Sequence record: PP129558
DNA: 64,000 nucleotides
Direction: 5' to 3' (one strand)
Source: Escherichia phage vB_EcoM_01
Shown one piece after another: positions 3,922 to 53,844 of the stretch. The translations under genes were made by a program, and so were the position numbers. The notes under the pieces are model-generated. The model was not told where the DNA came from and searched no databases. It saw nothing but the letters and a program-made list of their open reading frames with translations. Each line of letters starts with the position of its first letter. Positions within the stretch are counted from its first letter, which is position 1.

Positions 3922-4019
3922 AAGGAGGAAGATTATGGCTACTTTTCAACAACTGAAAGATGTTTCACGTTTAGTAAGAAAAATCCGAGAAGCAGACGCT
4001 GCTGCTGTCTCTTATACAN

Positions 4020-4609
4020 NNNNNNNNNNNNNNNNNNNNNNNNNNNNNNNNNNNNNNNNNNNNNNNNNNNNNNNNNNNNNNNNNNNNNNNNNNNNNNNNN
4101 NNNNNNNNNNNNNNNNNNNNNNNNNNNNNNNNNNNNNNNNNNNNNNNNNNNNNNNNNNNNNNNNNNNNNNNNNNNNNNNNNNNNNNNNNNNNNNNNNNNN
4201 NNNNNNNNNNNNNNNNNNNNNNNNNNNNNNNNNNNNNNNNNNNNNNNNNNNNNNNNNNNNNNNNNNNNNNNNNNNNNNNNNNNNNNNNNNNNNNNNNNNN
4301 NNNNNNNNNNNNNNNNNNNNNNNNNNNNNNNNNNNNNNNNNNNNNNNNNNNNNNNNNNNNNNNNNNNNNNNNNNNNNNNNNNNNNNNNNNNNNNNNNNNN
4401 NNNNNNNNNNNNNNNNNNNNNNNNNNNNNNNNNNNNNNNNNNNNNNNNNNNNNNNNNNNNNNNNNNNNNNNNNNNNNNNNNNNNNNNNNNNNNNNNNNNN
4501 NNNNNNNNNNNNNNNNNNNNNNNNNNNNNNNNNNNNNNNNNNNNNNNNNNNNNNNNNNNNNNNNNNNNNNNNNNNNNNNNNNNNNNNNNNNNNNNNNNNN
4601 NNNNNNNNN
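4020..4609. other. Assembly gap (N run) with duplicated flanks and adapter remnants
   Basis: 3856-4006 repeats at 4630-4780; CTGTCTCTTATACA at 4007-4018 and ACACCACGTCTG at 4610-4621. Confidence 0.8.
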
Positions 4610-19158: not shown

Positions 19159-19771
19159 CTATACCAGACTTTCAAGGTATTTGTCAAGGGCTTCTTGATC
19201 ACCTTGACAAACATAGCAACGGAAGTCTTGAGCCGAAGGTTGTTTATTTTCATCCCAGTCCCAATAAACATTACCCTTATAACGTGAACCAGGAAACTCA
19301 AAAGAGGCTGTATGTGTAATGTATCCTGGGCCACCAGTGAAATCACAGAATGAGAATTGAGGATATGCCGCCTTTACTGCCTCAATAAACCAAGCTTTAC
19401 GATCTAAGGCTTCATTGATGCTATATGCATGTCTCTCCATTTCTTCCCAAGTTTTCCAGACACTTCTCTCATCAGGAGAAAAGACAAGCNATTCNGGANG
19501 NGNANNNAGNNGACTCCTCCAGTTTTGAGTAATCAAAAGCAGAATATACCCACCAACCATCCTCCAGTAAGGCTTTGATAGGGACGAAGCCTTTATCAGC
19601 ATATTGATCGAATTGTTTGACACGGTGGCTTGTGCAGTCTTCAAACTCACATTCTAAACGATATGCACCTTTTCGACGAGCCTCAAGACCGTGTGTACTG
19701 AAAATAACAACACTTCCTTCACCATCATTACGATCTACTTGATAAGCAACTACTGGTTTTGAATTTGACAT
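19159..19771 (-). CDS. Hypothetical protein (ORF interrupted by ambiguous bases at 19490-19512)
   Basis: Two table ORFs in same frame across N-containing stretch. Confidence 0.4.
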
Positions 19772-20454
19772 TATTTCTCCTTATCTAGAAGATTGTTAGA
19801 CAAAAACACGGCACGAGCAAAACCACGTGCGGTTAGGGATCTAAGTTGTTTTGTTTTTGCACTAGCTCCACCTAAGCTTTTCCAACCCCAGAAGCAGCCT
19901 ATATGATCTACTGGTTTCTTCACTGGTTGAACAAAACCATTGCCGTGCCAAATACAAGTTTTCTTTGTATACCCATCACGGGTAGGCATTTTAGGATGAA
20001 AGCTTCCTTCCTCTTCAAACAAATACTCACCATACTCATAAGGATCAAAGTAAAAATCGGGTTTACGCCATAAGGTTGAAAGTTTACCTACTGGGTTCTC
20101 AATCATCCAAGGAACATTATATTTGTTACCCAAAGCTTCCACTACACGAATATTAGCTAAAGCTTCATCCAATTCCTCTGTGCTGCGTTCGTGTTTGCTA
20201 CCACTACCTGCTAACATAGTGCAAGGTGGAAATCCAAAAATAATATCGGGTTTAGGTATCCCATGATCTTCAGGGTTGAATGTAGAATCTATCCAGGCAT
20301 TCACATAGGTTATGTTTGGGTGCTCCATCCTAACCTCGTATTTACCGTGATCCCCTTCATCAGCGTTTACACAAAAACACTTGTGACCTGCTTCGGCATA
20401 ACGTAACACCATGATCCCAGATCCGTCAAACATAGACAAAACTGTTTTACTCAT
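19771..20454 (-). CDS. Short DNA (cytosine-5)-methyltransferase-like protein
   Basis: FDGSG (motif I-like), GFPPC (motif IV-like), ENP (motif VI-like). Confidence 0.45.
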   Translation of the reverse strand: MSKTVLSMFDGSGIMVLRYAEAGHKCFCVNADEGDHGKYEVRMEHPNITYVNAWIDSTFNPEDHGIPKPDIIFGFPPCTMLAGSGSKHERSTEELDEALANIRVVEALGNKYNVPWMIENPVGKLSTLWRKPDFYFDPYEYGEYLFEEEGSFHPKMPTRDGYTKKTCIWHGNGFVQPVKKPVDHIGCFWGWKSLGGASAKTKQLRSLTARGFARAVFLSNNLLDKEK

Positions 20455-20860
20455 TACCCCTCCATTCAAGACAAGCCATAACTTTACGCCAATCACTTTC
20501 TGTAAGAAAAATCTCGTTTGCTTTCTTCCACAAATCTAAATCGTGAAGGGTTGGAATACGATATGTTAGTTCACAGAATCTATGCTCTGCTTCTGTAATA
20601 TAACCAAAATGCAGAGCCACATCGTGAAACCAACACCAACCATGCATCTCTCGAACAACATGGTCATGTTGAGACATTATTTTATGCCGTAAACCTAACC
20701 AACAAGGAACAGATACTTTAGTAGTCTTTAATCTGTGTTCAACAGTATTAGAGTATTCAATAATAGCTGTCAGTTTCAATCGTGCTTTTTCTAAATCCTC
20801 ATGCGTCACTTTGAAATAACTTTCTGAAAGATATCCACACATATTAATAACCTCCTTCAA
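20447..20860 (-). CDS. Hypothetical protein
   Basis: ORF. Confidence 0.4.
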   Translation of the reverse strand: MKEVINMCGYLSESYFKVTHEDLEKARLKLTAIIEYSNTVEHRLKTTKVSVPCWLGLRHKIMSQHDHVVREMHGWCWFHDVALHFGYITEAEHRFCELTYRIPTLHDLDLWKKANEIFLTESDWRKVMACLEWRGNE

Positions 20861-21785
20861 AAGGCTTTACTACATGTTGATTAGCTTTAAAACGTTCAAC
20901 ATAGTCGTTTTCGCCCATGTTTTCATATAGCTTAATAACAACATAAAAGTTTTCCCAAGCATATTCCCTAAACCAACCACTAGTGATGGATGTGCAGACT
21001 TTAGATAAAGCCATTATAAAACTTTGCTTAGGGGTTGGACCTCCGATCTCTTCACCGAAAGGAATTTGTGAACGTTCCAAAGCCAAAACACACGCTTCTT
21101 CATAAACACCTAACAGCCGCACATGTTTTGGTTGAGCAAAAAACTTTTCTTTGCTGGTCATAACTTCACTTCCATCTTTCATATAAGATTTATATGCTGG
21201 AGCATCCATTAACGCGATTGCTTCATGGATAGAATCATGATCATAAACATACGGAACCTCGTCACCTTTAAAGAACTCTTTACTTTTTACGTTTAAGTTC
21301 GGATGAGAGTAAGTGTATGTTTCTCTCTCACGCAACTCATAAATACTCTTAAGATTTTCTGGGATCTTTGCGCCCAGTGACCGCATGAAATGAATATCTT
21401 TCATAGTTTTAAAGAAGTGAGGACTATCCTTTTTAAAACGATGACTCATTTTAAGAAGGTAGAGCACATCTAAAGGAGCAACAACATGTCCAGCGTAAGT
21501 TCGACGAACATCATCAGAATCTTCACAATAACTAATCAAAGCTTCTGTGCTATCTCCTTGAGAAGCAATATCGTATTCCAAATGTGCACCAGCTATCATT
21601 TTGACATGGCCTTTGTTCCCTTTACGTTCTACAAGTTCAACAAACTCGTCTTGAGAGAACATTTTTGATAATTCTTCCCACTCTTGTTCTGTACACAGGT
21701 AATCTAAATCTACACAAGGGCGATACAAGTCTTTTCCCATGCCCATAGCATGAATTTGTAATGCACGGCTACCAATTAACACCAT
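20844..21785 (-). CDS. Hypothetical protein with N-terminal GS...DxD motif (possible nucleotidyltransferase fold)
   Basis: LIGSRA ... CVDLD near N-terminus; weak. Confidence 0.35.
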   Translation of the reverse strand: MVLIGSRALQIHAMGMGKDLYRPCVDLDYLCTEQEWEELSKMFSQDEFVELVERKGNKGHVKMIAGAHLEYDIASQGDSTEALISYCEDSDDVRRTYAGHVVAPLDVLYLLKMSHRFKKDSPHFFKTMKDIHFMRSLGAKIPENLKSIYELRERETYTYSHPNLNVKSKEFFKGDEVPYVYDHDSIHEAIALMDAPAYKSYMKDGSEVMTSKEKFFAQPKHVRLLGVYEEACVLALERSQIPFGEEIGGPTPKQSFIMALSKVCTSITSGWFREYAWENFYVVIKLYENMGENDYVERFKANQHVVKPFEGGY

Positions 21786-21845
21786 AATATTTCTCCTCTA
21801 TTGGTTGATAGGTTAAGTTTATCAAGCTTCCAGATTCCTGTCAAT

Positions 21846-21866
21846 AAAAAACCCGCCGAAGCGGGT
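21846..21866 (-). terminator. Rho-independent terminator on minus strand (CCCGC-TTCG-GCGGG + T6)
   Basis: Same stem as the plus-strand terminator at 17161. Confidence 0.6.
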
Positions 21867-21875
21867 TATTATTTA

Positions 21876-22148
21876 CTAACACATTGAGGAAGAAGAGATC
21901 CAAACACCTCTTGTGGTTAAACCATTTTCATCCAACTCTACACCATAATCTTCACAAATGAAATCAATATAGTGATCTGCGGCTGGCGTTCCTGTAGGGT
22001 AATAAGTTTCTCCGTTACCGTAGTCACCTATCCAAGCTTGTTCCTGAAACTGTTCACAAAGTTCTTCAATTTCCTTACGAAACTTTCTTTGTGCTTGTTC
22101 CATCTCTTTAACTTTCTTTTTTATCAGCAGTTCGCCTTCAGACTCCAC
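21876..22148 (-). CDS. Small acidic protein with C-terminal GVWISSSSMC tail
   Basis: ORF; tail shared with neighbours. Confidence 0.45.
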   Translation of the reverse strand: MESEGELLIKKKVKEMEQAQRKFRKEIEELCEQFQEQAWIGDYGNGETYYPTGTPAADHYIDFICEDYGVELDENGLTTRGVWISSSSMC

Positions 22149-22157
22149 AATCTCTCC

Positions 22158-22376
22158 TTAACAGCTACTACTGTGCCAAACGCCTTGAGAATTAACAACG
22201 AAACCATCATCACCTTCACCATAACAAGAAGAGGATTGCCAATCTTCAAAACAGATTGCGTCATCTTCTAAACTAAGACCAAAACCAGCATCTTCAGCTT
22301 CTTTTGTAAGTTCGTCCACCAAAGCCATAATAGCTTGGGCTTTTTCAGTTAATTCTTCAACATTACGATAACTCAT
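22158..22376 (-). CDS. Small acidic protein with internal WQSSSC and C-terminal GVWHSSSC
   Basis: ATG after GAGGAG RBS. Confidence 0.45.
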   Translation of the reverse strand: MSYRNVEELTEKAQAIMALVDELTKEAEDAGFGLSLEDDAICFEDWQSSSCYGEGDDGFVVNSQGVWHSSSC

Positions 22377-22684
22377 TAGTATTTCTCCTCTGGTTGGAAA
22401 ACGGAACGACAGGCCCACATAGAAGCTTCTTTCAACTTAGTCTTTGCTATTGAAATTTGGTCAAGGCGGGTGGATATATTGGTAGACTCTTCCAAATCTT
22501 CACAATCATCCAGTTCAGCCCACAATTCAGACATTAGAGCATCAAAGATTAATCCTAATCGAACTTCAGCATCTTTAATAGCATTCACTTTACCAATTTT
22601 GTCATCGGTATGCGGTTTATAACCTTTGATATCTTCGATTCCCACTTTACCTCCTATTAACAACTTAAAGAAGATGGATGCCAA
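22376..22684 (-). CDS. Hypothetical protein (weakly supported, overlaps neighbours)
   Basis: ORF only; no clear RBS. Confidence 0.3.
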   Translation of the reverse strand: MASIFFKLLIGGKVGIEDIKGYKPHTDDKIGKVNAIKDAEVRLGLIFDALMSELWAELDDCEDLEESTNISTRLDQISIAKTKLKEASMWACRSVFQPEEKY

Positions 22685-22854
22685 TTTGTTCCAGTATTCT
22701 CATTTTCATCTTCTGGATCATAATAACCACCCATCCCATATTCAGGGGAGAAACTGAAACCTTCACCAGTCTCGTCTGCTAACTGCTCTGCTTCCGCTAA
22801 AGCCTCATAAGCTGCTTTTACGGCTTCTTCTACTGTTTTAAACTTGGTCGTCAT
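22657..22854 (-). CDS. Small acidic protein with C-terminal NWHPSSLSC tail
   Basis: ORF; tail motif. Confidence 0.45.
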   Translation of the reverse strand: MTTKFKTVEEAVKAAYEALAEAEQLADETGEGFSFSPEYGMGGYYDPEDENENTGTNWHPSSLSC

Positions 22855-23128
22855 AAAATTTCTCCTCTCCTAAAGACATGTTGACATGAAATGCGCGGTA
22901 TGTAAATTCGTTGTCCGTTGTGTTAGAATAAAACTCAAATTGAACAACACCGTCTTGAGAAGACAAATACATGCCAATTTGAACTGTTCCTTCTGGTACC
23001 AGGTAAGCATACTCTGGGCGTAGTGTTACATTGTAAAAATAAAGTTCCCCAACACCCATTTCATCCCAAGCTTCCCAAGCGGTAACGAAGTTACTTTCAA
23101 AACTTGTTACTGATCCGAACTCTGCCAT
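22838..23128 (-). CDS. Hypothetical protein
   Basis: ORF. Confidence 0.4.
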   Translation of the reverse strand: MAEFGSVTSFESNFVTAWEAWDEMGVGELYFYNVTLRPEYAYLVPEGTVQIGMYLSSQDGVVQFEFYSNTTDNEFTYRAFHVNMSLGEEKFYDDQV

Positions 23129-23619
23129 AAAACCTCCTCAATCTTGTAGTTTGACTCCATCTCCAACACATTTCCACGAACGTCTCTCCGAAGAAAGGCA
23201 TAAGCTTTATTAGGTATTGTAGACTCATATTTAACCATATCTGGCACAGCAAAAGATACTACTACTCCTGCTGGGCTTCTGTCAAGAGCCTTATTAATAT
23301 TTCTAAGGATATCGTTAGCCAAGATTTCTGCCAATTCTCCAAGAACAGTTTCGGTTATATCTTTATATCCCATTAAATATTTGTTGATATCTTTCATCTC
23401 TGTATTGTTCAGAGTATAGTCCAAAGGATAGAAATTCAAAGCGGAGTCACTTTTATGTGTCCACATGAAATGCACCCGATCCGAGCAGAATCGTAACCCT
23501 CTACGAAGAATATCTTCTACAACAGGCAGAATTTCTTTTGTCACATCATTAACCATGTTGTAATCTAAGATTTCTGCCAAGTTTGTTCTTTGTTCACCAC
23601 GTTTACGTCTAGGAATCAC
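23107..23619 (-). CDS. Hypothetical protein
   Basis: ORF. Confidence 0.4.
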   Translation of the reverse strand: MIPRRKRGEQRTNLAEILDYNMVNDVTKEILPVVEDILRRGLRFCSDRVHFMWTHKSDSALNFYPLDYTLNNTEMKDINKYLMGYKDITETVLGELAEILANDILRNINKALDRSPAGVVVSFAVPDMVKYESTIPNKAYAFLRRDVRGNVLEMESNYKIEEVLWQSSDQ

Positions 23620-24187
23620 TTGTTATCGCCCTCATTACCAAAGGTCGTAGAAAATCGTAAATCTCTTGTTTTGTTTTCCCACGAATGTTTAAACAAGGAA
23701 CATTATTGGCTTTAGCTATCTTCCAAGCCGTAGCTGTTCCACCTTTTGCATCTCCATGTTTATCAGTATTAGCACAAGCCAACAAGAAACATGATGGAGC
23801 AGGATTCTCCAAATCTCTGCCTAACACTTGATGCACATTACGTTGGTGCAATTTTCTAGCACCCTGCTTAAGCTTTTCATAAGCTGGGTGAACATCTTTG
23901 ATCCATTGCACAGAGATAGCATAGTTCATTGTATCTGGTTTTGCAAGAACAATAACATCACCTGGAATCTGATTACCTTTGAAATTTTCCCAAGGAACAT
24001 AAATCTCCTTGTTAGTAGGATTTTCAGACTCTTGGACACCTGTTTCAAAAGCAGAATCACTACCCTCTGCCTTCCCAGACCGTAATTTAAACCCAAGGTT
24101 TGAAAGCCATTTCCCTATGCCTACCATCAAAGCCCACTCTTCTTCAGATATGTCCCTACTTCCAACTCCCGTATAGAACAGTTCTGC
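23609..24187 (-). CDS. DprA/SLOG-like Rossmann-fold protein
   Basis: GVGSR ... SGKAEGSDSAFETG ... GGTATAWKIA pattern; GAGGTG RBS. Confidence 0.4.
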   Translation of the reverse strand, partial: AELFYTGVGSRDISEEEWALMVGIGKWLSNLGFKLRSGKAEGSDSAFETGVQESENPTNKEIYVPWENFKGNQIPGDVIVLAKPDTMNYAISVQWIKDVHPAYEKLKQGARKLHQRNVHQVLGRDLENPAPSCFLLACANTDKHGDAKGGTATAWKIAKANNVPCLNIRGKTKQEIYDFLRPLVMRAITSDS

Positions 24188-24197
24188 CATAATCACC

Positions 24198-24506
24198 TCA
24201 ACAAGTAATTTCAAAAGGTGTATAGGGTTCCGTATTTCTCATGATCCAAGGACTGCTAGGATTGCTCGGATCATAAGGACCAAAAGGTTTTATGGTAGGT
24301 TGTGTTTCTTTCTTCTGAATCTCTTCAAAAATACGACGAAGTTCAGAATATTCTTGATCCACCATAAGATTCGGTGCATCTGATTCTACAGCTTGCAGGT
24401 TATCTTCCTTAAGAACAATCTCACGAACAAGATTAACATCTTCTGTTTCTAAGATAACTTCTTTACGGATATTACCTACACTTTGAATAATTGTAATCTT
24501 ATACAT
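24198..24506 (-). CDS. Hypothetical protein
   Basis: ORF. Confidence 0.4.
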   Translation of the reverse strand: MYKITIIQSVGNIRKEVILETEDVNLVREIVLKEDNLQAVESDAPNLMVDQEYSELRRIFEEIQKKETQPTIKPFGPYDPSNPSSPWIMRNTEPYTPFEITC

Positions 24507-25249
24507 TAATCCTCCTCAAGAGTTGAATAAAATTGAAGACCACCGTCCATATCGAAATAAGCAAATGTTAAGTTATTATTGAACACAGATCCAGTATCCA
24601 TATAAACACGATTCGCATTGATAATAGGTGTTTTTACATAAGAGTGTCCATGAAACACATAATCCACACCCATCACAACAGGAAGTTTCATTCCCTCTTT
24701 AGCACAGTCTACCATATCTCTGTCCCACATAAGTGCTTCAGCAAAACGGTTTTCCTGTGTTTTTGTCATCTTCGAAATGTATTCTGGAATATCTGTTACA
24801 GGGAGATATTCCAAAGAAGATGGATACCCACCATGAATAAACGCAAGTTTCATGCCTCTGTAGTTAACAATGAGAACAACAGGTAAATCTTCTGTCATCA
24901 TTGCTAAGGCTGTAGCTCCTTCTTCACCACATTCTTCAAAGACCGTATATCCTCCATTTTGATACCAACACTCGTAGTAGCTACGATCTCCTTCCAGCAT
25001 ACCTTTAATCATCATGTCTTCATGATTGCCACGAATAGCATAGCGATTGTGTTTACGAGTAAATTCTAAAACACAACGAAAGTTTTGCTTTCCACGGTCA
25101 GTAAGATCTCCTAGAGATACAACCACATCTGTATCTCGGATACCTAACTTTGCCTTTCCTTTTTCATACAAATTATAACAACCGTGTAGATCTCCAATTA
25201 TAAAAAGATCTTGATCGCTTTTAACAGTAATTTCTCTGTGTATGATCAC
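24506..25249 (-). CDS. Ser/Thr protein phosphatase (calcineurin-like metallophosphoesterase, PP-lambda type)
   Basis: GDLHGCY, GDLTDRG, GNHE motifs. Confidence 0.75.
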   Translation of the reverse strand: MIIHREITVKSDQDLFIIGDLHGCYNLYEKGKAKLGIRDTDVVVSLGDLTDRGKQNFRCVLEFTRKHNRYAIRGNHEDMMIKGMLEGDRSYYECWYQNGGYTVFEECGEEGATALAMMTEDLPVVLIVNYRGMKLAFIHGGYPSSLEYLPVTDIPEYISKMTKTQENRFAEALMWDRDMVDCAKEGMKLPVVMGVDYVFHGHSYVKTPIINANRVYMDTGSVFNNNLTFAYFDMDGGLQFYSTLEED

Positions 25250-25575
25250 TTATCCTCCTCAAAATCTAAGAAAATAAAAATATTCACCTTTCCTTCAATC
25301 TCTTGTTCTAAAACAAGATCGGCAAATTCTGCATAAGCTTTCTCTTCAACTTTTTCAATATGTTCTGCGGCATCTTTAAAAGGCGTATCCCCATCCACCT
25401 TTACTAATAAGAAAAGAGATCGCATTTCGACGTTTTTACTGTTACGAGGAAGGAAATCTACAGCTTCAACAATTCTCCAACCCAAATAGCCAGGGGTTTT
25501 ATGAATCTCCCCTAAATACTTTTCTAAGATTTTACGACCCTCGTCGATAAGGGCTTGTTCTGTAGTAATTTCCAT
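25246..25575 (-). CDS. Hypothetical protein
   Basis: ORF. Confidence 0.4.
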   Translation of the reverse strand: MEITTEQALIDEGRKILEKYLGEIHKTPGYLGWRIVEAVDFLPRNSKNVEMRSLFLLVKVDGDTPFKDAAEHIEKVEEKAYAEFADLVLEQEIEGKVNIFIFLDFEEDK

Positions 25576-25585
25576 TCCTTCCTCC

Positions 25586-26158
25586 TCAAATTATTAACGA
25601 AACCGCATGACTAAATCTTGGTTCAGATATAACCTCTGCTACAGTCACATATGTATCGTGCAGCCAAAAAGATTCTACTCTACAAACACAAATACCGTTG
25701 ATAATGAAATCTACACAGGCTTTATTATTTTCGCACACTTGTTGACTATAAACAACCCCTAAAGAGTCATAAAGTGATCTCACTGTTGCTACCATTTCAT
25801 CTGTTTCGTCTTCCTGTGAAACAAAGAAAACGAATACAGACAAGTTATTAGCGAAAGTATTGCTATTCTCTACTTCAACCGACTTACAAGGTAAAAAGGA
25901 GTAATATTTACCGTTAGGTATCAATTTCGCCTCAACCTGGTTAAGTATGCTTTGAGATGGTTTTGTTACATAAAAAAGATTTTCTGTTGGGTTTTCAACA
26001 TTACTCCTTACTATGCAACGAGTGGGGTTCGAAGGATCAAAAACATGATCGAAATCGACACACACAGGTAAGTTAACAACTTTAAACTTTTTGCTAAGAA
26101 TGCTTACTGCTGTAAAAATCAAACCAGCATTTATTTTGCCAGTGAAAGTTGAACGCAT
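25586..26158 (-). CDS. Hypothetical protein
   Basis: ATG after GAGGAG RBS; table ORF trimmed. Confidence 0.4.
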   Translation of the reverse strand: MRSTFTGKINAGLIFTAVSILSKKFKVVNLPVCVDFDHVFDPSNPTRCIVRSNVENPTENLFYVTKPSQSILNQVEAKLIPNGKYYSFLPCKSVEVENSNTFANNLSVFVFFVSQEDETDEMVATVRSLYDSLGVVYSQQVCENNKACVDFIINGICVCRVESFWLHDTYVTVAEVISEPRFSHAVSLII

Positions 26159-26172
26159 AACTACTCCTCGGA

Positions 26173-26367
26173 TCATTCTACCAAAGAGAATTCCGCCTCT
26201 TCCAGGTAGATTACAGACCTTGTTGCATGATATTTAACGCTCCAGAAATTACCTTCGCGCCGTAAAAGTATCTCATTCACATCAAGATTGCTTAGAAAAA
26301 CCATATAACTTAAAGCTTGTTGACGCGTTGAGAATTGTTTCTCTAAAAGTTCTTCTCCGCTCTGCAT
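26173..26367 (-). CDS. Hypothetical protein
   Basis: ORF. Confidence 0.35.
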   Translation of the reverse strand: MQSGEELLEKQFSTRQQALSYMVFLSNLDVNEILLRREGNFWSVKYHATRSVIYLEEAEFSLVE

Positions 26368-26412
26368 AATCCCTCCTTAAAATACTCCCTCCGAAAAGGG
26401 AGTATAAGTATA

Positions 26413-26616
26413 TCACGTAGTTGTTATGTTGTCTTCTTGGATTCTAGAATCCACTTCTGCAAACATATCTTCTGCACTGTAATTATTTCCAGTCCAGCGT
26501 GATAAAAGGATAGCACCAATCTCTTTTGCATGAGATTCGGACTCCGCATAAACGTTAGTCCCAGTGTCACCTTTTTTCTTTTCATGTGCATAAATGCAGT
26601 AATAATTGTAAGCCAT
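26413..26616 (-). CDS. Hypothetical protein
   Basis: ORF. Confidence 0.35.
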   Translation of the reverse strand: MAYNYYCIYAHEKKKGDTGTNVYAESESHAKEIGAILLSRWTGNNYSAEDMFAEVDSRIQEDNITTT

Positions 26617-26852
26617 TAATCTTCCCAGTCATTGCCCTCGGTAGAGTGAACTAAAGCTCGCACGATACCACCGTAATCTACTGCCTGATTTGCAGCATGT
26701 TCGGCATAAACTTCAATGGCTTTTTTGAAGAAAAGAGCAGTAGCTGCTTCAATATTATCCATTTCGCCATCTACGTCAGTAGAAAGTGAAAGGTTGAGGC
26801 TTTCATCTACTTCATCAAAATCAATAGCCACTGTCATAATTAGTTTACCCAT
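26616..26852 (-). CDS. Hypothetical acidic protein
   Basis: ORF. Confidence 0.35.
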   Translation of the reverse strand: MGKLIMTVAIDFDEVDESLNLSLSTDVDGEMDNIEAATALFFKKAIEVYAEHAANQAVDYGGIVRALVHSTEGNDWED

Positions 26853-26864
26853 AGTTCACACTCC

Positions 26865-27374
26865 TTAAACAAAATAAAATGGTTGAGAGAGGCCCAAACG
26901 ATTCTTTGGGTCGTATACATACCAAGCGTATGCTGTCTTATCTGTTCCACCTGCAACAAACGAAGGCCGTTCTGAAAGGACTATAAGGTTTGTTGGTGGA
27001 TTCTTTTGATGGAACTCTCGTCGTTTCTTTGACTCCAAGAAGCCCAACCGAAGAAGATAAATACAAACATCCGCCTCTTTTAAGCTCTTTTCCAAGAACT
27101 CCATTGCTAACTTAAATGGAGGATTTGTGATTATAATGTCGGGACGATTTTCCCATTCATGACTAAAATAATCTTTACCTTCTTCAAGTTCGCAATATTC
27201 TGAACCTTCAGGAAAATGGCGATAAATCGCTTCAGCTTCACCTCTGCAAGGTTCTGCAAAAACCCAACCTTCTTCCTTTAGATTTTTGAAATCTATAACA
27301 CTAAACAAACTATTGATTGCTTTTTGCGGTGTCGGATAATAATCGCTCGTTGGGCGATCATAATCTAATGCCAT
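26865..27374 (-). CDS. DNA N6-adenine (amino) methyltransferase
   Basis: DYYPTPQ near N-terminus and catalytic NPPF motif. Confidence 0.6.
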   Translation of the reverse strand: MALDYDRPTSDYYPTPQKAINSLFSVIDFKNLKEEGWVFAEPCRGEAEAIYRHFPEGSEYCELEEGKDYFSHEWENRPDIIITNPPFKLAMEFLEKSLKEADVCIYLLRLGFLESKKRREFHQKNPPTNLIVLSERPSFVAGGTDKTAYAWYVYDPKNRLGLSQPFYFV

Positions 27375-27792
27375 CTAAAATCTCCTCTTTTGTAATATTA
27401 TCCAACTCTTTAAAGGATGAAATCTCGTTTAATAATCCTATTTGATCAGCCTCTAGAGGATAAGTGTTTTTATCTGTTTTTCTAGACAGAATATCTTCAA
27501 CAAACTTATCAATAGCCAAAGAAGAATCATAAAATTTTAAAAGTTGGTAATCCATAGGAGATATTTTGTCATCTCTTAGAAATATTTCTAACATGTTTTC
27601 AGGAGTATCGTGGTTTAGTTTATGTTCACCAAAAATATTAACTTCGTAAACATCTTTGCCAAACCAACGTTTTTTCTTTTCAACAGTATAGGTTTTTGCC
27701 ACCAGACCATCTAAACAGTTTCTTGCCCTCTTACATGTTTGACGGTAAGAGTGGATAGCGCCTTCAACAAACTTAGCAGGAACTTGTAACAT
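27358..27792 (-). CDS. Hypothetical protein
   Basis: ORF. Confidence 0.4.
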   Translation of the reverse strand: MLQVPAKFVEGAIHSYRQTCKRARNCLDGLVAKTYTVEKKKRWFGKDVYEVNIFGEHKLNHDTPENMLEIFLRDDKISPMDYQLLKFYDSSLAIDKFVEDILSRKTDKNTYPLEADQIGLLNEISSFKELDNITKEEILDGIRL

Positions 27793-27837
27793 TATTAATC
27801 TCCTATGTTTAAGAAATGCCCCCGAAGGGGCAGTTTG

Positions 27838-28530
27838 TTAAATAGCGGTTCCTTCGAAATCCGCCACATTTACGAGATTAATATTTTCAGATTTAGAAGT
27901 CAAGTTGTTTTCTGCAACAGATTTTTCTTCAGTATCCGCCTCGTTACCTGCCACGTTACGAGGTTCTTCTTCACCGTAGGGATTACCGAATTTCAAAAGA
28001 TTGATCAATTCTTCTTTGGAGAAGTTTTCTAAATCATCGTCTGTTAATTCAATAATCTCGTCTTGTTCTTCAATAAATGTTTCACCACCAGAAAAAGCAT
28101 CTCGCTTTTTAGCTACTTCCATAGCCTGTTCTGGTGTTGCCCCTGCATCAAGAGCAGCTAAAGCAAAGTCTGACCCACTTCCTACCGCATAATATTCTTC
28201 ATCAATCGGATATGCACGTGTTGGGTTGTTACCTTCGTGCAGGAAAATACGTCCGTCTGGATGAACAACAAGTGCAATAAACTCTTCATCTTCTTTATCT
28301 GGATCAGAGTGAATCATCAAACCAGGGACAGCATCACGTGCTGCTTCGCACTGTAGATTTTGTTCAAACCATTGAAAGAAAGAAAGCACGGAGGTCAGAC
28401 GACCAGCACCACCTACAAGGTAATCTCCAATTTTTCGGACCTTTTTGAAATTAATAGAATCTACACGTCCACCAAAAGTTACCTTACCATCACTCAAAAT
28501 CTTATTTTTGGTTGCAATAATTGTCGTCAC
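27838..28530 (-). CDS. HslV-like N-terminal-nucleophile peptidase (proteasome beta-like) with acidic C-terminal extension
   Basis: MTTIIATKN (Thr after Met), KKVRK, GGAGR, AVGSGSDFALAA resemble HslV. Confidence 0.65.
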   Translation of the reverse strand: MTTIIATKNKILSDGKVTFGGRVDSINFKKVRKIGDYLVGGAGRLTSVLSFFQWFEQNLQCEAARDAVPGLMIHSDPDKEDEEFIALVVHPDGRIFLHEGNNPTRAYPIDEEYYAVGSGSDFALAALDAGATPEQAMEVAKKRDAFSGGETFIEEQDEIIELTDDDLENFSKEELINLLKFGNPYGEEEPRNVAGNEADTEEKSVAENNLTSKSENINLVNVADFEGTAI

Positions 28531-29033
28531 TATTCTTCCTCCTCTGTTAATGTTTTAAGAACCGCTTTCCCACCATTCACATATTTGCAGATGTATTCTA
28601 TCGCACGTAGTGTCTCTTTGTCAACAAAAATTTGATCAGACGTTGCGAGCGGGTTATTAAGAAGATCACTGCAATCACGAACAAGCAGTGCTTTCTTATT
28701 AAACAAATTACTTAAGAACAGTAACTTCGCCTCTTCTTCTGTTATGTGCAGAAGGCTAGGATCGGAGCCAGCTATTCCTATTATACAATCAAACAAGCTT
28801 TCTTTACTATCAGAAAGTTCTTGAAAATGGTTTAAAAGCCAATCTTCTCCTAGACACCAACATTTAAACATTTCCAGTTTATCTCGGAGGGTCATATTCT
28901 CTAAAGTAAGAGCAATCTCTTTTTCAATATGGTTTACACAAATTTGACGAAATTCGTTAGGTTTTACGAGTCCCGTTTGATAGCACTCATCTATACCGCT
29001 TCTTCCGATAGCTATTGTTGCTACACCCATCAA
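28530..29033 (-). CDS. Hypothetical protein
   Basis: ORF. Confidence 0.4.
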   Translation of the reverse strand: MMGVATIAIGRSGIDECYQTGLVKPNEFRQICVNHIEKEIALTLENMTLRDKLEMFKCWCLGEDWLLNHFQELSDSKESLFDCIIGIAGSDPSLLHITEEEAKLLFLSNLFNKKALLVRDCSDLLNNPLATSDQIFVDKETLRAIEYICKYVNGGKAVLKTLTEEEE

Positions 29034-29065
29034 TCCTCCTTATAAATGGCTTCCCTGCCATGTTA

Positions 29066-29824
29066 TTAAATAAACACTTCAGTAATCAGTTTAGACAAAC
29101 GTCCACGTTTATTATCGTCCGTTGTCAGTTCAACGTATCCAATAAAATCTACAATTGGCTCACGAACACCTTCTTCATTTTCTGGATATAAAAGTTCCAA
29201 AATTTGATGCAGACCATTGCTACGTTTTTTAATTGCATATGTCTGGCGAACATCGCCTAATACAATAACATGCGTATTAATACCTGCACGTTCAATAAGA
29301 AGTTTAAGTGTTTCTGTTGACATAAGTTGTGCTTCGTCAATAATGACGATTGTATTATCCAGGGTGGCCCCCAACAAATAGTTAGGAATATTCAATTCGA
29401 TCTTACCTGATCCAATATCGTTTTCCAATTTGTTGGCTGTCATGAATTGCTGGAAAATACGTTTTGTAGATTCATAGTGTGCTGCTAGTTTATCTGTTTT
29501 ATCTCCAGACAAGAAACCAATCTGGTCATCTCCGACTTCAGTAGGGTTCTTGATAAAAAGTAGTTTACGGAAGTCTCCTGAACGAAGCATCTGCAAAGCT
29601 TTCCATAAAGCAACAGAGGTTTTACCAGTCCCTGCCGGAGCATTTACAACAGTCAGATCATTCCAAATCATGCTTTGAACAATCTTATTTTGGTCCCCTT
29701 CAGGCATAAATTCATCTAAACGGTAATCGTCATTACCTACCGCTTTTGCTGCATAACGGCTTTCAATCTTTGCTGAATTAGCCAGTTTCTGCCGTTGTGT
29801 TTTAGCTGCGGTTTTATTTCCCAT
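29066..29824 (-). CDS. phoH: PhoH-like P-loop ATPase
   Basis: Walker A APAGTGKTS; Walker B IIDEAQ; start set at internal ATG with AAAGGAG RBS. Confidence 0.75.
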   Translation of the reverse strand: MGNKTAAKTQRQKLANSAKIESRYAAKAVGNDDYRLDEFMPEGDQNKIVQSMIWNDLTVVNAPAGTGKTSVALWKALQMLRSGDFRKLLFIKNPTEVGDDQIGFLSGDKTDKLAAHYESTKRIFQQFMTANKLENDIGSGKIELNIPNYLLGATLDNTIVIIDEAQLMSTETLKLLIERAGINTHVIVLGDVRQTYAIKKRSNGLHQILELLYPENEEGVREPIVDFIGYVELTTDDNKRGRLSKLITEVFI

Positions 29825-29843
29825 AGTAGCACTCCTTTTAGAA

Positions 29844-29857
29844 GGGGCCGAAGCCCC
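29844..29857 (-). promoter_or_regulatory. Intercistronic GGGGCTTCGGCCCC hairpin, copy 2 of 3
   Basis: Identical to copies at 17803 and 36012. Confidence 0.5.
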
Positions 29858-29861
29858 TTTA

Positions 29862-30362
29862 TTAGTTGTAAGCATCTAAAGTTCCAGAAGTCAGAACTTT
29901 AATTACTCGTTCAGCACGGTTTGGCGTCTGGCTATACCATCGGCTTTTACGCATGTTTTTACCTGCTTGAGTATAATATGCATTGCTGATTAAAGTCAAG
30001 CTATTTTGAAACCCTTCAGCACCTTTTAACCCCAACTGGAAAACCATGTTGATTATTCCCAATTTACGAGTATCACTCACCTTATCATAGATTGGTGATA
30101 AGATAGCACTGTTTTTTATGTCTCTCTTCACTTTTGCAACATCATCAGCAAAGATTTGACGGGCTTCTTTTTCTGTGATAACTCCATTGGTCTTACGACC
30201 AAGAAGATTATCTAAGATTTGAATAGCCTTTGCTTTATCTTTTATTTTAGTCAGAAGGTGTCCTATGCCGACTGTCCAATAACCAAGATGGTCTTGATAA
30301 ACAGTAAGCTTCAGTCCTTCATCGACTCGTAGCATATCAAACTCATCTACTACTTTAGCCAT
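29862..30362 (-). CDS. T4-type lysozyme (endolysin, muramidase)
   Basis: LRVDEGLKLTVYQD ... GYWTVGIGHLLT and SRWYSQTPNRAERVI closely match T4 gene e lysozyme. Confidence 0.85.
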   Translation of the reverse strand: MAKVVDEFDMLRVDEGLKLTVYQDHLGYWTVGIGHLLTKIKDKAKAIQILDNLLGRKTNGVITEKEARQIFADDVAKVKRDIKNSAILSPIYDKVSDTRKLGIINMVFQLGLKGAEGFQNSLTLISNAYYTQAGKNMRKSRWYSQTPNRAERVIKVLTSGTLDAYN

Positions 30363-30364
30363 TT

Positions 30365-30520
30365 ACTTCCTATTCGTCGTCTCCTACTCCGTGATCCAAC
30401 TCATTAAACAACAGGTGTTCTGGAGAAGTTTCACGTTTTGGTTTCGTTTTCTTTATGTTGGACTTCAGCTCATTTGCCAAAGCACGAGAAAAGATCTTAC
30501 GTTTCTGTTTACTTTTCATA
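30365..30520 (-). CDS. Hypothetical small basic protein (51 aa)
   Basis: Small ORF filling gap; Lys-rich. Confidence 0.3.
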
Positions 30521-30524
30521 ATTG

Positions 30525-30785
30525 TTACTCCGCAATTTGAGCCATGAGATCACGCAGTTCGGTAAAACCGCCTACGTATGTTACCTCCCCGTTCACTTCA
30601 GACAGAATTTGTGGAAATGTGCGTGGAGGAACTCCGGTAAGATCAACAACTGTTTTAGTCATTGATTCTAAATCATAGTCTTGGTCAAGACTTAAATATT
30701 CAAACTGTTTATTGCGCATGGTTAATAGTTGTTTTGACATTTCACAAAATTGACAGTTAGGTTTACCAAAAATTACAAATTCCAT
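30525..30785 (-). CDS. Glutaredoxin (NrdH/Grx-like redoxin)
   Basis: CQFC active site, TFPQI, GGF motifs. Confidence 0.75.
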   Translation of the reverse strand: MEFVIFGKPNCQFCEMSKQLLTMRNKQFEYLSLDQDYDLESMTKTVVDLTGVPPRTFPQILSEVNGEVTYVGGFTELRDLMAQIAE

Positions 30786-31627
30786 TACCTCTCCTTATTA
30801 AGTAATACTGCTAAAGACTGTTCAATACCTTTATTTAAATCTGATTTTGTAAGATAGTGACTGGTTACTAGTTGTGACTTCACCGGACGTGCTGCTGGAG
30901 CATTATAGGTTGAAGCTGATACCGCCGATATCTTAACAGGTTCTGGCATCTGTGTCAAGATCTTTTCCGCAAACTCCGCCCAAGAAATAAGATGGCTTCC
31001 TGCAAAATGGTAAGTCTTAACAGACCTTGACCAACCTGTTTTTAATACTTCAAAAATAGCTTCTGCTAAATCTGGAGCATATGTTGGACAAGAGAACTGA
31101 TCAGCAACAATAATAAAATCACGTTGTCCATCATTATAGCGAGACAACATGGTTTTTAGAAAGTTATTTCCAAATTCACTATATACCGAGGCTGTTCGAA
31201 TAATATATGCATTTGGATTAACTCCTCGCACCATTTTTTCACCAAGTTCTTTCGTATACCCATAATTGTTTATTGGGTTAGGTGTAGTATCTTCAAAAAT
31301 AGGATGAGAATAATTAAAAATATAGTCTGTAGAAATATGCACAAAATCAATTCTAAGTTTGCTGCACACTGCTGCAATGTTTGCAGGTCCATACGCATTA
31401 ACAGCCAAAGCAGTAGCAAAATCCTGTTCAGCTTTATCTACAGCCGTATAAGCGGCGCAATTAATAACGCCATCTACATAATCTTCAACAATAGCGTTTC
31501 GCACAGCTTCAAAATTTGTAATATCTACACGTTCTTTAGGATAAATTAAAGATACATTTGAAGGAGCCACTTTACGTAAAGCTTGTCCCAGTTGTCCATT
31601 ACCACCCAATACCAGATATGTTAGCAT
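30785..31627 (-). CDS. rmlD: dTDP-4-dehydrorhamnose reductase
   Basis: N-terminal GGNGQLG Rossmann motif, YGYTK (YxxxK), last in rml gene order. Confidence 0.75.
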   Translation of the reverse strand: MLTYLVLGGNGQLGQALRKVAPSNVSLIYPKERVDITNFEAVRNAIVEDYVDGVINCAAYTAVDKAEQDFATALAVNAYGPANIAAVCSKLRIDFVHISTDYIFNYSHPIFEDTTPNPINNYGYTKELGEKMVRGVNPNAYIIRTASVYSEFGNNFLKTMLSRYNDGQRDFIIVADQFSCPTYAPDLAEAIFEVLKTGWSRSVKTYHFAGSHLISWAEFAEKILTQMPEPVKISAVSASTYNAPAARPVKSQLVTSHYLTKSDLNKGIEQSLAVLLNKER

Positions 31628-32187
31628 ACACCCTCGCTACGTAACTGTTGAAAAGATTTAGCCATTGCATCTTTTGTTGATAGAATAGGTTTAAAACCTT
31701 CGTCAAAAATCATATCGAAGCCCCAATCGATCCCTATATCAGGATCATCCCAACGTAAACTTTGTTCACTAGAAGGGTCGTATGGAGTTGTGCATTTGTA
31801 TTCAAAGATAGCATCCATACTCAAAACTATAAAACCATGTGCCAAACCAGGTGGAAGCCAAAACTGCGTATGGTGCCGTGCACGAAGAACAACACCGTCC
31901 CAAGCACCGTAAGTTGGACTATCTTTACGTAAATCTACAGCGAAATCCAAGACTTCTCCGCTTACACAACGAACAAGCTTACCTTGCGGGTTATTTGTTT
32001 GAAAGTGCATTCCTCGCAAAACACCGAAGTTTGATTTAGACATGTTATCTTGAACGAAAGTTTGTCTACCAATGATATCTTCGTATTTTTGTTCATTATA
32101 TGTTTCTAAAAAGAAACCACGATCATCTTTATAAACATCTGGTTTGATAATTACCGCACCTTCAATTTTTGTTTTTTCTACTTTCAT
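31621..32187 (-). CDS. rmlC: dTDP-4-dehydrorhamnose 3,5-epimerase
   Basis: [15 protein letters not shown] motif; ATGA start/stop overlap with rmlA. Confidence 0.7.
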
Positions 32188-33062
32188 TTTCTCTCCGCTA
32201 ATTTGAGTAGGTATTGCCCGTACTCTGTTTTCTTCAGTGAGTTTCCATGATATACCAAAGTCTCTAAAGAAATCCACCCTTTTTTGAAAGCAATTTCTTC
32301 CAGGCACGCAATCTTCAATCCTTGACGGTTCTCAATAGTCTGCACGAATTGACCAGCTTCCATCAGACTGGCGTGTGTTCCTGTGTCAAGCCAAGTAAAT
32401 CCTCGTCCGAGAACTTCCACTTGTAACTTCCTGTCTTCGAGGTAGCTGCGATTGATATCTGTGATCTCCAGTTCTCCACGCGCGGAAGGGGTTACTTCTA
32501 ATGCACGTTGAACAACAGAGTTATCATAGAAATACAAACCTGTGACAGCATAATCTGATTTAGGATTTTCAGGTTTCTCTTCAATAGAAATAGCTTGACG
32601 ATTACTCCCAAATTCAACCACACCAAATCGTTCAGGATCTTTCACCAAATACCCGAAGATACAAGCTCCGCCACAAACATCTACCATCTCACTGGCGTTA
32701 ATCAGTAGTTTACCAAAGCTTTGTCCGAAGAATAGGTTGTCACCTAAAATAAGAGCAACAGAGTCTTCTCCGATAAAATCTTTACCGATGATGAAAGCGT
32801 CCGCAAGACCTCGTGGCTCGGATTGGATTGCGTAAGTGAGTTTTATCCCAAACATAGACCCATCTCCGAGAAGATACTCAAAGTCTTCCTGATCGCCTGG
32901 TGTGGTGATGATTAAGATATCCTTAATGTCAGCCAACATCAATACCGATAAAGGGTAGTAGATCATGGGTTTGTCATACACAGGGAGCAATTGCTTGCTC
33001 ACACTGCGTGTTACCGGATGAAGGCGGGTTCCACTTCCTCCCGCCAAAATAATACCTTTCAT
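32184..33062 (-). CDS. rmlA: Glucose-1-phosphate thymidylyltransferase
   Basis: [19 protein letters not shown]-terminus. Confidence 0.85.
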
Positions 33063-33070
33063 AACCCTCC

Positions 33071-34063
33071 TTAAATCTTCTCACTCCACCATTGAGGGTT
33101 GTTTAAGTACCATTCAATCGTTGAGTAGAGATCTTGTTCAAATGTAGAGTTTGCACTCCAACCCAGTTCAGACTCTATTTTAGAAGGATTGATTTCATAA
33201 CGCAAGTCATGTCCTTTACGATCTTCAACAAAAGTTATCAAGTTGGAAGAAGGGTAGGTTCCTGCTTCTGGATGTACAGTATCCATGTAGTCACAAACCA
33301 TATAGATGATCTCCATATTGGTTTTGGGATTACGTGTTCCAACATTATACGTTTGACCTGGTTCTCCACCTGTTGCCACTTGAAGAATAGCTCGCGCATG
33401 ATCCTCAACAAAAAGCCAGTCTCGCACCTGATCGCCTTTACCATACACCGGAATCTCTTTATTCGTCAAGATACTTGTGATGATTTTTGGGATCAGCTTT
33501 TCTGGATGTTGATAAGGTCCAAAGTTATTGGAGCAGTTGGTTATCACAACAGGTAAACCGTAGGTACGGTACCAAGCTTTCACAAGATGGTCAGATGCTG
33601 CCTTAGACGCACTGTACGGGCTTGAAGGGGCATAAGCTGTCTCTTCGGTAAAGGGAACGCCAGAGTCTGCCATATCACCGTACACTTCGTCTGTGGAGAC
33701 GTGTACGAACATCTTCAGTTTATTTTTTGGGAGGAGCCTTGCAGCTTCCAATAAATTGTATGTACCAATAATATTGGAGTCGATGAAAACTCGTGGATTC
33801 TTGATAGAATTATCCACATGACTCTCTGCCGCTAAGTGAATGATGAAATCGGGATTGCACTCTACTACTAAACTTTTTACTTGGGCTTCGTTTGCCAAAT
33901 CTGTCATGCTTAGTTTAACGTGAGTGATATCGCCTACATTCTCAATATCTGCTGCATAGCTCATCTTATCAACGACAAAAACTTCGTTATTAGGATCTTG
34001 ACAAAGAGAGCGCACCACGGCACTCCCAATAAAACCAAGACCACCTGTTACCAGATAGCGCAT
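33071..34063 (-). CDS. rmlB: dTDP-glucose 4,6-dehydratase
   Basis: TGGLGFIGS Rossmann motif; YSASK catalytic motif. Confidence 0.85.
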
Positions 34064-36123: not shown

Positions 36124-36975
36124 NNNNNNNNNNNNNNNNNNNNNNNNNNNNNNNNNNNNNNNNNNNNNNNNNNNNNNNNNNNNNNNNNNNNNNNNNNNNN
36201 NNNNNNNNNNNNNNNNNNNNNNNNNNNNNNNNNNNNNNNNNNNNNNNNNNNNNNNNNNNNNNNNNNNNNNNNNNNNNNNNNNNNNNNNNNNNNNNNNNNN
36301 NNNNNNNNNNNNNNNNNNNNNNNNNNNNNNNNNNNNNNNNNNNNNNNNNNNNNNNNNNNNNNNNNNNNNNNNNNNNNNNNNNNNNNNNNNNNNNNNNNNN
36401 NNNNNNNNNNNNNNNNNNNNNNNNNNNNNNNNNNNNNNNNNNNNNNNNNNNNNNNNNNNNNNNNNNNNNNNNNNNNNNNNNNNNNNNNNNNNNNNNNNNN
36501 NNNNNNNNNNNNNNNNNNNNNNNNNNNNNNNNNNNNNNNNNNNNNNNNNNNNNNNNNNNNNNNNNNNNNNNNNNNNNNNNNNNNNNNNNNNNNNNNNNNN
36601 NNNNNNNNNNNNNNNNNNNNNNNNNNNNNNNNNNNNNNNNNNNNNNNNNNNNNNNNNNNNNNNNNNNNNNNNNNNNNNNNNNNNNNNNNNNNNNNNNNNN
36701 NNNNNNNNNNNNNNNNNNNNNNNNNNNNNNNNNNNNNNNNNNNNNNNNNNNNNNNNNNNNNNNNNNNNNNNNNNNNNNNNNNNNNNNNNNNNNNNNNNNN
36801 NNNNNNNNNNNNNNNNNNNNNNNNNNNNNNNNNNNNNNNNNNNNNNNNNNNNNNNNNNNNNNNNNNNNNNNNNNNNNNNNNNNNNNNNNNNNNNNNNNNN
36901 NNNNNNNNNNNNNNNNNNNNNNNNNNNNNNNNNNNNNNNNNNNNNNNNNNNNNNNNNNNNNNNNNNNNNNNNNNN
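36124..36975. other. Assembly gap (N run) flanked by 148-bp exact duplication
   Basis: 35976-36123 equals 36976-37123. Confidence 0.8.
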
Positions 36976-53463: not shown

Positions 53464-53844
53464 TCCATATTCNGTCTCTTATNNNNNNNNNNNNNNNNNN
53501 NNNNNNNNNNNNNNNNNNNNNNNNNNNNNNNNNNNNNNNNNNNNNNNNNNNNNNNNNNNNNNNNNNNNNNNNNNNNNNNNNNNNNNNNNNNNNNNNNNNN
53601 NNNNNNNNNNNNNNNNNNNNNNNNNNNNNNNNNNNNNNNNNNNNNNNNNNNNNNNNNNNNNNNNNNNNNNNNNNNNNNNNNNNNNNNNNNNNNNNNNNNN
53701 NNNNNNNNNNNNNNNNNNNNNNNNNNNNNNNNNNNNNNNNNNNNNNNNNNNNNNNNNNNNNNNNNNNNNNNNNNNNNNNNNNNNNNNNNNNNNNNNNNNN
53801 NNNNNNNNNNNNNNNNNNNNNNNNNNNNNNNNNNNNNNNNNNNN
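53464..53844. other. Assembly gap (N run) with duplicated flanks
   Basis: 53322-53463 repeats at 53860-54002; AGAGACAG adapter remnant at 53845-53852. Confidence 0.8.

Follow-up and report, generated by a model that had tools for sequence, protein, structure and literature searches.

The stretch of Escherichia phage vB_EcoM_01 DNA analysed here (PP129558; 64,000 nucleotides (nt) in full, hereafter the window) carries on its minus strand a short open reading frame (ORF), whose product of 169 amino acids (aa) is a predicted DNA adenine methyltransferase and the subject of this study. The features of the gene are as follows, with invariance referring to an alignment of 42 family sequences (alignment A1) and SAM standing for S-adenosylmethionine.

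26865..27374, minus strand: coding sequence of the methyltransferase (ORF call, ATG start, 169 aa)
27382..27386, minus strand: Shine-Dalgarno sequence AGGAG, 7 nt 5' of the ATG, by direct reading of the sequence
27324..27344, minus strand: DYYPTPQ, residues 11–17, a motif X-like N-terminal element with Y13, T15 and P16 invariant or nearly so
27234..27254, minus strand: EPCRGEA, residues 41–47, the motif I SAM-binding loop, assigned from alignment A1 and following strand 39–41 of the structural model
27114..27125, minus strand: NPPF, residues 84–87, the catalytic motif IV, with T83, N84, P85 and P86 invariant
26958..26969, minus strand: RPSF, residues 136–139, an invariant R-P-x-F that opens loop 133–148 before the last strands

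The protein begins with MALDYDRPTSDYYPTPQ, and the minus strand at the start codon reads AAGAGGAGATTTTAG-ATG; the ribosome-binding site is strong, and the ORF is a real gene, far beyond chance. The segment IIITNPPF (residues 80–87) fits, by direct reading, the PROSITE N6-methylase pattern PS00092, and among all ORFs of at least 80 aa in the window this one alone carries a [DNS]PP[YFWH] motif. A preliminary description of the locus, made from the DNA letters, had drawn on DYYPTPQ and NPPF, and both are indeed found, at residues 11–17 and 84–87. Positions invariant in alignment A1 are T15, E41-P42-C43, T83-N84-P85-P86, R118, R136-P137, F139 and W151; in motif I, G45 is nearly invariant as well, and the last glycine of the family form EPCRGxG is replaced here (GEAEA vs GxG).

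The protein matches phrog_799, ‘DNA methyltransferase’, over residues 4–163 (E=2.8e-59, 202.5 bits). A tblastn search matched 543 phage records, 64 of them at 99% identity or more, and among the matches listed, at least 40 records encode exactly the same protein (100% identity). Positions 20000–34000 of the window are 99% identical to Phapecoctavirus genomes such as phAPEC8, ESCO13, tuntematon and SKA64, the window being a phAPEC8-like Phapecoctavirus sequence, and the identical protein of phAPEC8 is gp177 (YP_007348460.1), labelled ‘DNA methyltransferase’ in RefSeq; other records name the identical protein ‘DNA N-6-adenine methyltransferase’ or ‘hypothetical protein’, methyltransferase labels being present in dozens of records. 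The gene is thus already annotated correctly in public records, and the activity of an orthologue has been published. The records MG065635–MG065690 (‘Campylobacter phage’ B15, C12, A147 and others) match Phapecoctavirus or Vequintavirus sequences of E. coli phages at 99–100% identity across the region, which suggests that these Campylobacter jejuni phage entries may be mislabelled or contaminant coliphage genomes.

The replaced third glycine of motif I could be taken as a sign of a catalytically dead or non-enzymatic remnant, e.g., a SAM-binding decoy. This is extremely improbable: every residue invariant in the family is present, the protein is fully conserved across many phage isolates, and motif I is likewise atypical (CRNSASG) in the Bas51-type orthologue described below, which is nevertheless active.

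Alignment A1, used as a profile against a library of 1.84 billion proteins, retrieved 13,900 cluster representatives. Neither the single protein nor the 42-sequence profile scored above threshold with any Pfam or NCBIfam model, the best Pfam match, to EcoRI_methylase, reaching 14.7 bits vs a cutoff of 26.4 and covering the NPPF region only; likewise, neither query had a significant sequence match among solved structures in PDB. Since the Pfam, NCBIfam and PDB sequence searches were not significant, the placement of the family rests on PHROGs, fold and orthology. Orthologues are about 85% identical in Justusliebigvirus and 44–50% identical in Vequintavirinae such as rV5, slur16, PVP-SE1 and Certrevirus, and homologues are stand-alone proteins of 160–260 aa. 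With about 14,000 clusters at 50% identity, the family is very large; it lies outside Pfam and NCBIfam and has no solved structure.

The best 150 of the 13,900 profile matches were inspected for informative domain fusions, and only tandem duplications and zinc (Zn)-ribbon tails or inserts were seen. In some members, a CxxC...CxC Zn ribbon is inserted in the RPSF loop (alignment A1 columns ~175–215), whereas in homologues from K139-like Vibrio phages (orf8; locus L004, 2971–3588) it is C-terminal instead. Two large homologues, P0211 (560 aa) and P0242 (448 aa), consist of two tandem methyltransferase domains after an N-terminal hydrophobic segment resembling a signal peptide (MRLKKLLMSTLLAVLELSSVCNA...), which is odd for a DNA methyltransferase.

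The AlphaFold2 model built from the family alignment is of high confidence (mean predicted local distance difference test score, pLDDT, 90.8; predicted template modelling score, pTM, 0.87). It comprises a compact Rossmann methyltransferase core alone, the chain stopping about 15 residues past the last core strand, and contains no target-recognition domain; confidence is lower in loop 133–148 (pLDDT 73–86). A Rossmann-like fold, motif IV after strand 4 and the motif I loop after strand 1 are the features of class I (D/N/S)PP(Y/F/W) amino-methyltransferases, and the window protein shows all of them. Comparison of the model with known folds gave the following scores, m6A denoting N6-methyladenosine.

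MmeI, DNA, gamma class: 13.1
M.TaqI, DNA, gamma class: 12.9
M.BseCI, DNA, gamma class: 12.1
CamA, DNA, gamma class: 11.8
type I HsdM, DNA, gamma class: 11–12
PH1948, rRNA m6A: 13.3
METTL5, rRNA m6A: 12.9
ErmC', rRNA m6A: 12.0
KsgA, rRNA m6A: about 11

Taken together, the predicted fold and the motifs establish an amino-methyltransferase, which probably acts on adenine N6, and do not alone decide between DNA and RNA, as DNA and rRNA m6A enzymes are not separable by the fold search. Human METTL5 has the same EQYPT...NPPF layout. Hence, the motif argument of the preliminary description holds for the enzyme class, whereas motifs alone would not exclude an rRNA m6A enzyme. Still, we find it very unlikely that the protein is an RNA (rRNA or tRNA) enzyme that resembles METTL5/PH1948 or Erm/KsgA and methylates adenine N6 in host or phage RNA. 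DNA methyltransferases align with the model over more residues (mostly 150–159, with 141 for M.TaqI) than the RNA enzymes do (139–141); no RNA methyltransferase is matched significantly in sequence, the identity to METTL5/PH1948 being only 18–19%; METTL5/PH1948 act on RNA, with TRMT112 as a partner in eukaryotes, whereas the orthologue of the window protein acts on DNA; and prophage homologues keep company with DNA methylases and replication genes. Thus, neither a significant sequence relationship to the METTL5/PH1948 type nor an RNA substrate was found. A point mutation in the orthologue strips N6-methyladenine (6mA) at GATC from virion DNA.

The latter observation comes from a 2025 PLoS Biology study, in which escapers of the retrons Asa1 and Squ1 were selected in the Vequintavirus Bas51; all of them were mutated in a phage ‘N6 adenine methyltransferase’, and the engineered substitutions D69G, D79G and T83P in this enzyme each abolished retron defence (PMC12548924). 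Nanopore analysis of wild-type virion DNA yielded 1405 GATC, 509 GTAC and 576 other methylated-adenine sites, with a distinct GATC motif in the methylation logo, and T83P virion DNA yielded 35, 511 and 349 sites, respectively; overexpression of the enzyme is toxic, and the enzyme triggers the retrons (PMC12548924).

The Vequintavirus orthologue of the window protein has 177 aa, is at least 98% identical among Vequintaviruses, is labelled ‘putative N6 adenine methyltransferase’ in the BASEL records, and has D69 (in GVDYL), D79 (in VDCIITNPPY) and T83 at exactly the mutated positions. From this residue numbering and the annotation, the paper itself printing no sequence, we infer that the Bas51 enzyme is a member of the family considered here; with the Bas51 enzyme taken as a member, the family acts on DNA. 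The window protein is 48% identical to the 177-aa orthologue over 168 residues, D68, D79 and T83 lying opposite D69, D79 and T83, and all three positions are invariant or nearly so in alignment A1. Moreover, the methyltransferase gene lies 3' of PhoH and an HslV/ClpP-like protease in phAPEC8, PVP-SE1 and slur16 alike, and therefore the Vequintavirinae genes are positional orthologues. The preliminary description had also proposed a DNA amino-methyltransferase specific for adenine, and this is borne out by the motifs, the fold and a syntenic, 48%-identical orthologue linked to GATC 6mA in virion DNA. In Certrevirus CB7, ClaI digestion was interpreted by its authors as Dam-type methylation, which, like the C5 DNA methylases and replication genes beside prophage homologues and the Zn ribbons of some family members, lends weaker support to DNA as the substrate and GATC as the site; no direct methylome or digestion data were found in the literature for Phapecoctavirus or Justusliebigvirus.

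The window contains 263 GATC sites, 0.92 of the number expected, i.e., GATC is not avoided, and TGATCA and AGATCT are at expectation; these palindrome statistics, which lend the GATC assignment weak and indirect support, show only the absence of GATC avoidance, and the specificity of the enzyme is not derivable from them. Many other palindromes are depleted: the window lacks 23 of the 64 six-base palindromes, among them CTGCAG (0 observed vs 12.2 expected), GGATCC (0 vs 8.2), CAGCTG (0 vs 7.7) and GCATGC (0 vs 7.5), and the four-base palindromes CCGG, GGCC, GTAC and CTAG are at 0.36–0.53 of expectation, the first three at approximately 0.36–0.39.

By analogy, we regard it as reasonably probable that the Phapecoctavirus protein shares the GATC specificity of the Bas51 enzyme. 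A DNA N6-adenine methyltransferase whose target has diverged from that of the Vequintavirus orthologue is rather unlikely. The identity to the characterised orthologue is just 48%, loop 133–148 differs between the two proteins (FVAGG-TDKT vs FQSNGRTDGQ), and in small methyltransferases few changes can suffice to switch specificity; against this, the genes are syntenic orthologues, every family-invariant residue is kept, and GATC stays at its expected frequency while many other palindromes have been purged.

A sequence-non-specific adenine methyltransferase of the Hia5/EcoGII type, blanketing the phage genome, would agree with the lack of a recognition domain, with the toxicity of the overexpressed orthologue and with the orthologue dependence of some non-GATC sites (576 -> 349). 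Nevertheless, we consider this highly improbable, since the wild-type Bas51 logo is distinctly GATC and most of the dependent sites are GATC, and since restriction palindromes, the purging of which would be needless under blanket methylation, are purged in the window. In addition, EcoRI, EcoRV and further systems blocked by adenine methylation remain fully effective against relatives (PMC8594841).

Taking all this into account, we consider it likely that the gene encodes a SAM-dependent, stand-alone DNA N6-adenine methyltransferase, most probably specific for GATC and in this sense Dam-like, which consists of a catalytic core of about 170 aa only and belongs to a family not classified in Pfam. 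Several points weigh against this assignment. The protein is acidic (isoelectric point, pI, 5.2) and has no recognisable DNA-recognition domain. The identity of the Bas51 gene as the orthologue rests on residue numbers and an annotation name, and GATC activity has been shown only for the Bas51 enzyme, so that, with 48% identity between the two proteins, the window protein might have another specificity. Host Dam goes unmentioned in the retron paper (PMC12548924), and the toxicity, together with the decrease of ‘other’ sites on mutation, may mean a specificity looser than GATC. Finally, relatives bearing the orthologue are highly sensitive to restriction, which puts the selective benefit of the enzyme in question.

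In the best-supported scheme, transcription from the long minus-strand run of early and metabolic genes would supply the enzyme, which would bind SAM via the EPCRG loop and the acidic positions E62 and D68, take up the flipped-out target adenine in the NPPF pocket and methylate its N6. Replicating phage DNA would thus be methylated, most probably at GATC, and packaged genomes would be fully GATC-methylated regardless of host Dam. The role of such a mark may be to keep phage GATC sites methylated against MboI/DpnII-type enzymes and nicking by MutH, although this part of the scheme is uncertain.

From a structural point of view, it is of interest how a core of 170 aa lacking a recognition domain could read GATC, and so small an enzyme, if Dam-like, might be of use in DamID-type tools. 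The RPSF loop (133–148) is the obvious candidate for recognition because of its lower model confidence and its use as the Zn-ribbon insertion site in other members; it may correspond to motif VIII or a DNA-contact loop reading GATC. The tandem duplications in P0211 and P0242 suggest that the enzyme may act on the palindrome as a homodimer. We tentatively propose, while regarding it as doubtful, that the family forms a distinct, Pfam-unclassified minimal lineage (about 170 aa), in which Dam-like GATC specificity is achieved with no recognition domain, perhaps through the RPSF loop and homodimerization, and perhaps with relaxed specificity; an intrinsically relaxed specificity would account for the non-GATC sites as well as for the toxicity. 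GATC recognition would then, if this is true, have arisen by an independent evolutionary route, and the family might offer the smallest scaffold of any sequence-specific DNA methyltransferase.

Comparison with known systems places the window protein closest to the Bas51/rV5-type enzyme, with which it shares, in addition to 48% identity over the full length, the same motifs, a size of about 170 aa, the lack of a recognition domain, the orphan state and the position 3' of an HslV/ClpP-like protease. They differ in that the rV5-type phages belong to the Vequintavirinae and the window phage to the Stephanstirmvirinae, in the catalytic motif (NPPY vs NPPF here), in loop 133–148, and in an extra 144-aa ORF inserted 5' of the window methyltransferase.

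The linear order of motifs is that of the gamma class, namely, YPTP (13–16), EPCRG (41–45), NPPF (84–87) and RPSF (136–139). However, enzymes of this class (M.TaqI, MmeI, Eco57I, HsdM, CamA, M.BseCI) rely for target recognition on a large C-terminal domain or on a separate domain or subunit, and the window protein, since it has none, is not a canonical member; it does not reach the thresholds of the Pfam models N6_Mtase, Eco57I and MmeI_Mtase. The Dam enzymes of the T1/HP1/VT-2 type (PF05869) are also phage-encoded orphans, which methylate adenine in GATC, are about as small as the window protein and have an NPPY/F motif, and structural neighbours in BFVD are named T1/HP1-type Dam at a template modelling (TM) score of about 0.58. 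Nonetheless, membership in PF05869 was not demonstrable, as the window protein has no match to this model, the orthologue scores 19.2 bits vs a cutoff of 28.1, and the hhalign probability of alignment A1 vs T1 Dam is 4%. The alpha-class Dam of E. coli and T4 (MethyltransfD12) is likewise an orphan enzyme, with the same probable product, m6A at GATC, but has a different motif order, a DPPY motif and an inserted recognition domain; a sequence match to it was not found with the window protein, which is thus analogous to E. coli/T4 Dam in function and belongs to a different family.

The preliminary description had further suggested that the enzyme protects phage DNA against host restriction. In this general form the suggestion is not supported. 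Vequintavirinae and phi92-like phages that carry the orthologue have been described as ‘exceptionally susceptible’ to restriction-modification systems (PMC8594841), and the visible anti-restriction trait of the window is its strong palindrome avoidance. Protection by a GATC mark is limited to enzymes of the MboI/DpnII type, which cut at GATC and are sensitive to methylation. In addition, judging by the Bas51 enzyme, the methyltransferase would be a liability through retron triggering and the toxicity of overexpression. A general anti-restriction role is therefore weakly supported, and other roles, such as escape from MutH cleavage of unmethylated GATC or from SeqA binding, appear equally plausible. 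This corrects the assumption that an orphan methyltransferase of a phage implies broad anti-restriction.

The orphan state itself, also claimed in the preliminary description, was confirmed. No restriction endonuclease was detected beside the methyltransferase, the neighbours, i.e., small proteins in PHROGs of unknown function and an HslV-like peptidase, having no nuclease match in Pfam or PADLOC. In temperate phages and prophages, the homologous genes belong to early or replication modules, with C5 DNA methylases, GPA or DnaB, and repressors beside them; at 34 bacterial loci, five of the immediate neighbours matched a C5 DNA methylase family and none a nuclease family. As no cognate endonuclease is adjacent to the gene here or in the prophage homologues, a type II restriction-modification system was rejected, and the gene is an orphan outside any restriction-modification system.

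The surrounding genes form a long minus-strand run in the order dTDP-rhamnose genes, glutaredoxin, lysozyme, PhoH, HslV-like peptidase, 144-aa ORF and methyltransferase, after which come several short ORFs without known function, a NinI-like phosphatase and DprA. The features immediately 5' of the methyltransferase are as follows.

27358..27792, minus strand: 144-aa ORF of unknown function (phrog_15078), its 3' end overlapping the methyltransferase start by 17 nt
27817..27832, minus strand: terminator-like GC hairpin, from a consensus scan, between the HslV-like peptidase gene and the block of the 144-aa ORF and the methyltransferase
27838..28530, minus strand: HslV/proteasome-like peptidase gene, just 5' of the methyltransferase block

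The neighbourhood of protease and methyltransferase is kept from Phapecoctavirus to Vequintavirus and Seunavirus. The 144-aa ORF, which has no Pfam or PADLOC match, was considered as a specificity partner and rejected: in PVP-SE1 and slur16 no such ORF separates the protease gene from the methyltransferase gene, and, because the methyltransferase directly follows the protease in the Vequintavirinae, the 144-aa ORF is not a conserved partner. Comparison with PVP-SE1 and slur16 revealed no conserved partner gene of the methyltransferase.

A second small methyltransferase gene lies at 19771–20496 on the minus strand (phAPEC8 gp194; phrog_757, E=4e-84; the RefSeq start is probably 20454). Its product has the C5-cytosine-like motifs FGFPPC and ENPVG, weak matches to PADLOC cytosine methylases and no Pfam match. 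One might speculate that an enzyme of the gp194 type is behind the GTAC modification in Bas51, where about 510 GTAC calls are unchanged by T83P. Just 3' of this gene, a masked run (19490–19511) breaks two ORFs; in total, 1,837 bases of the window are masked (N), at 4019–4609, 36124–36975 and 53483–53844 and in short runs.

The 196-aa ORF at 25586–26176 on the minus strand (phAPEC8 gp181), which has no PADLOC match, is labelled ‘histidyl tRNA synthetase’ in RefSeq, a doubtful label at such a size. Finally, a dTDP-rhamnose cluster (RmlA, B, C, D-like; 30785–34063, minus strand) is situated among genes of nucleotide and DNA metabolism; DNA glycosylation has been speculated on by others, with phi92-like relatives still being restriction-sensitive.
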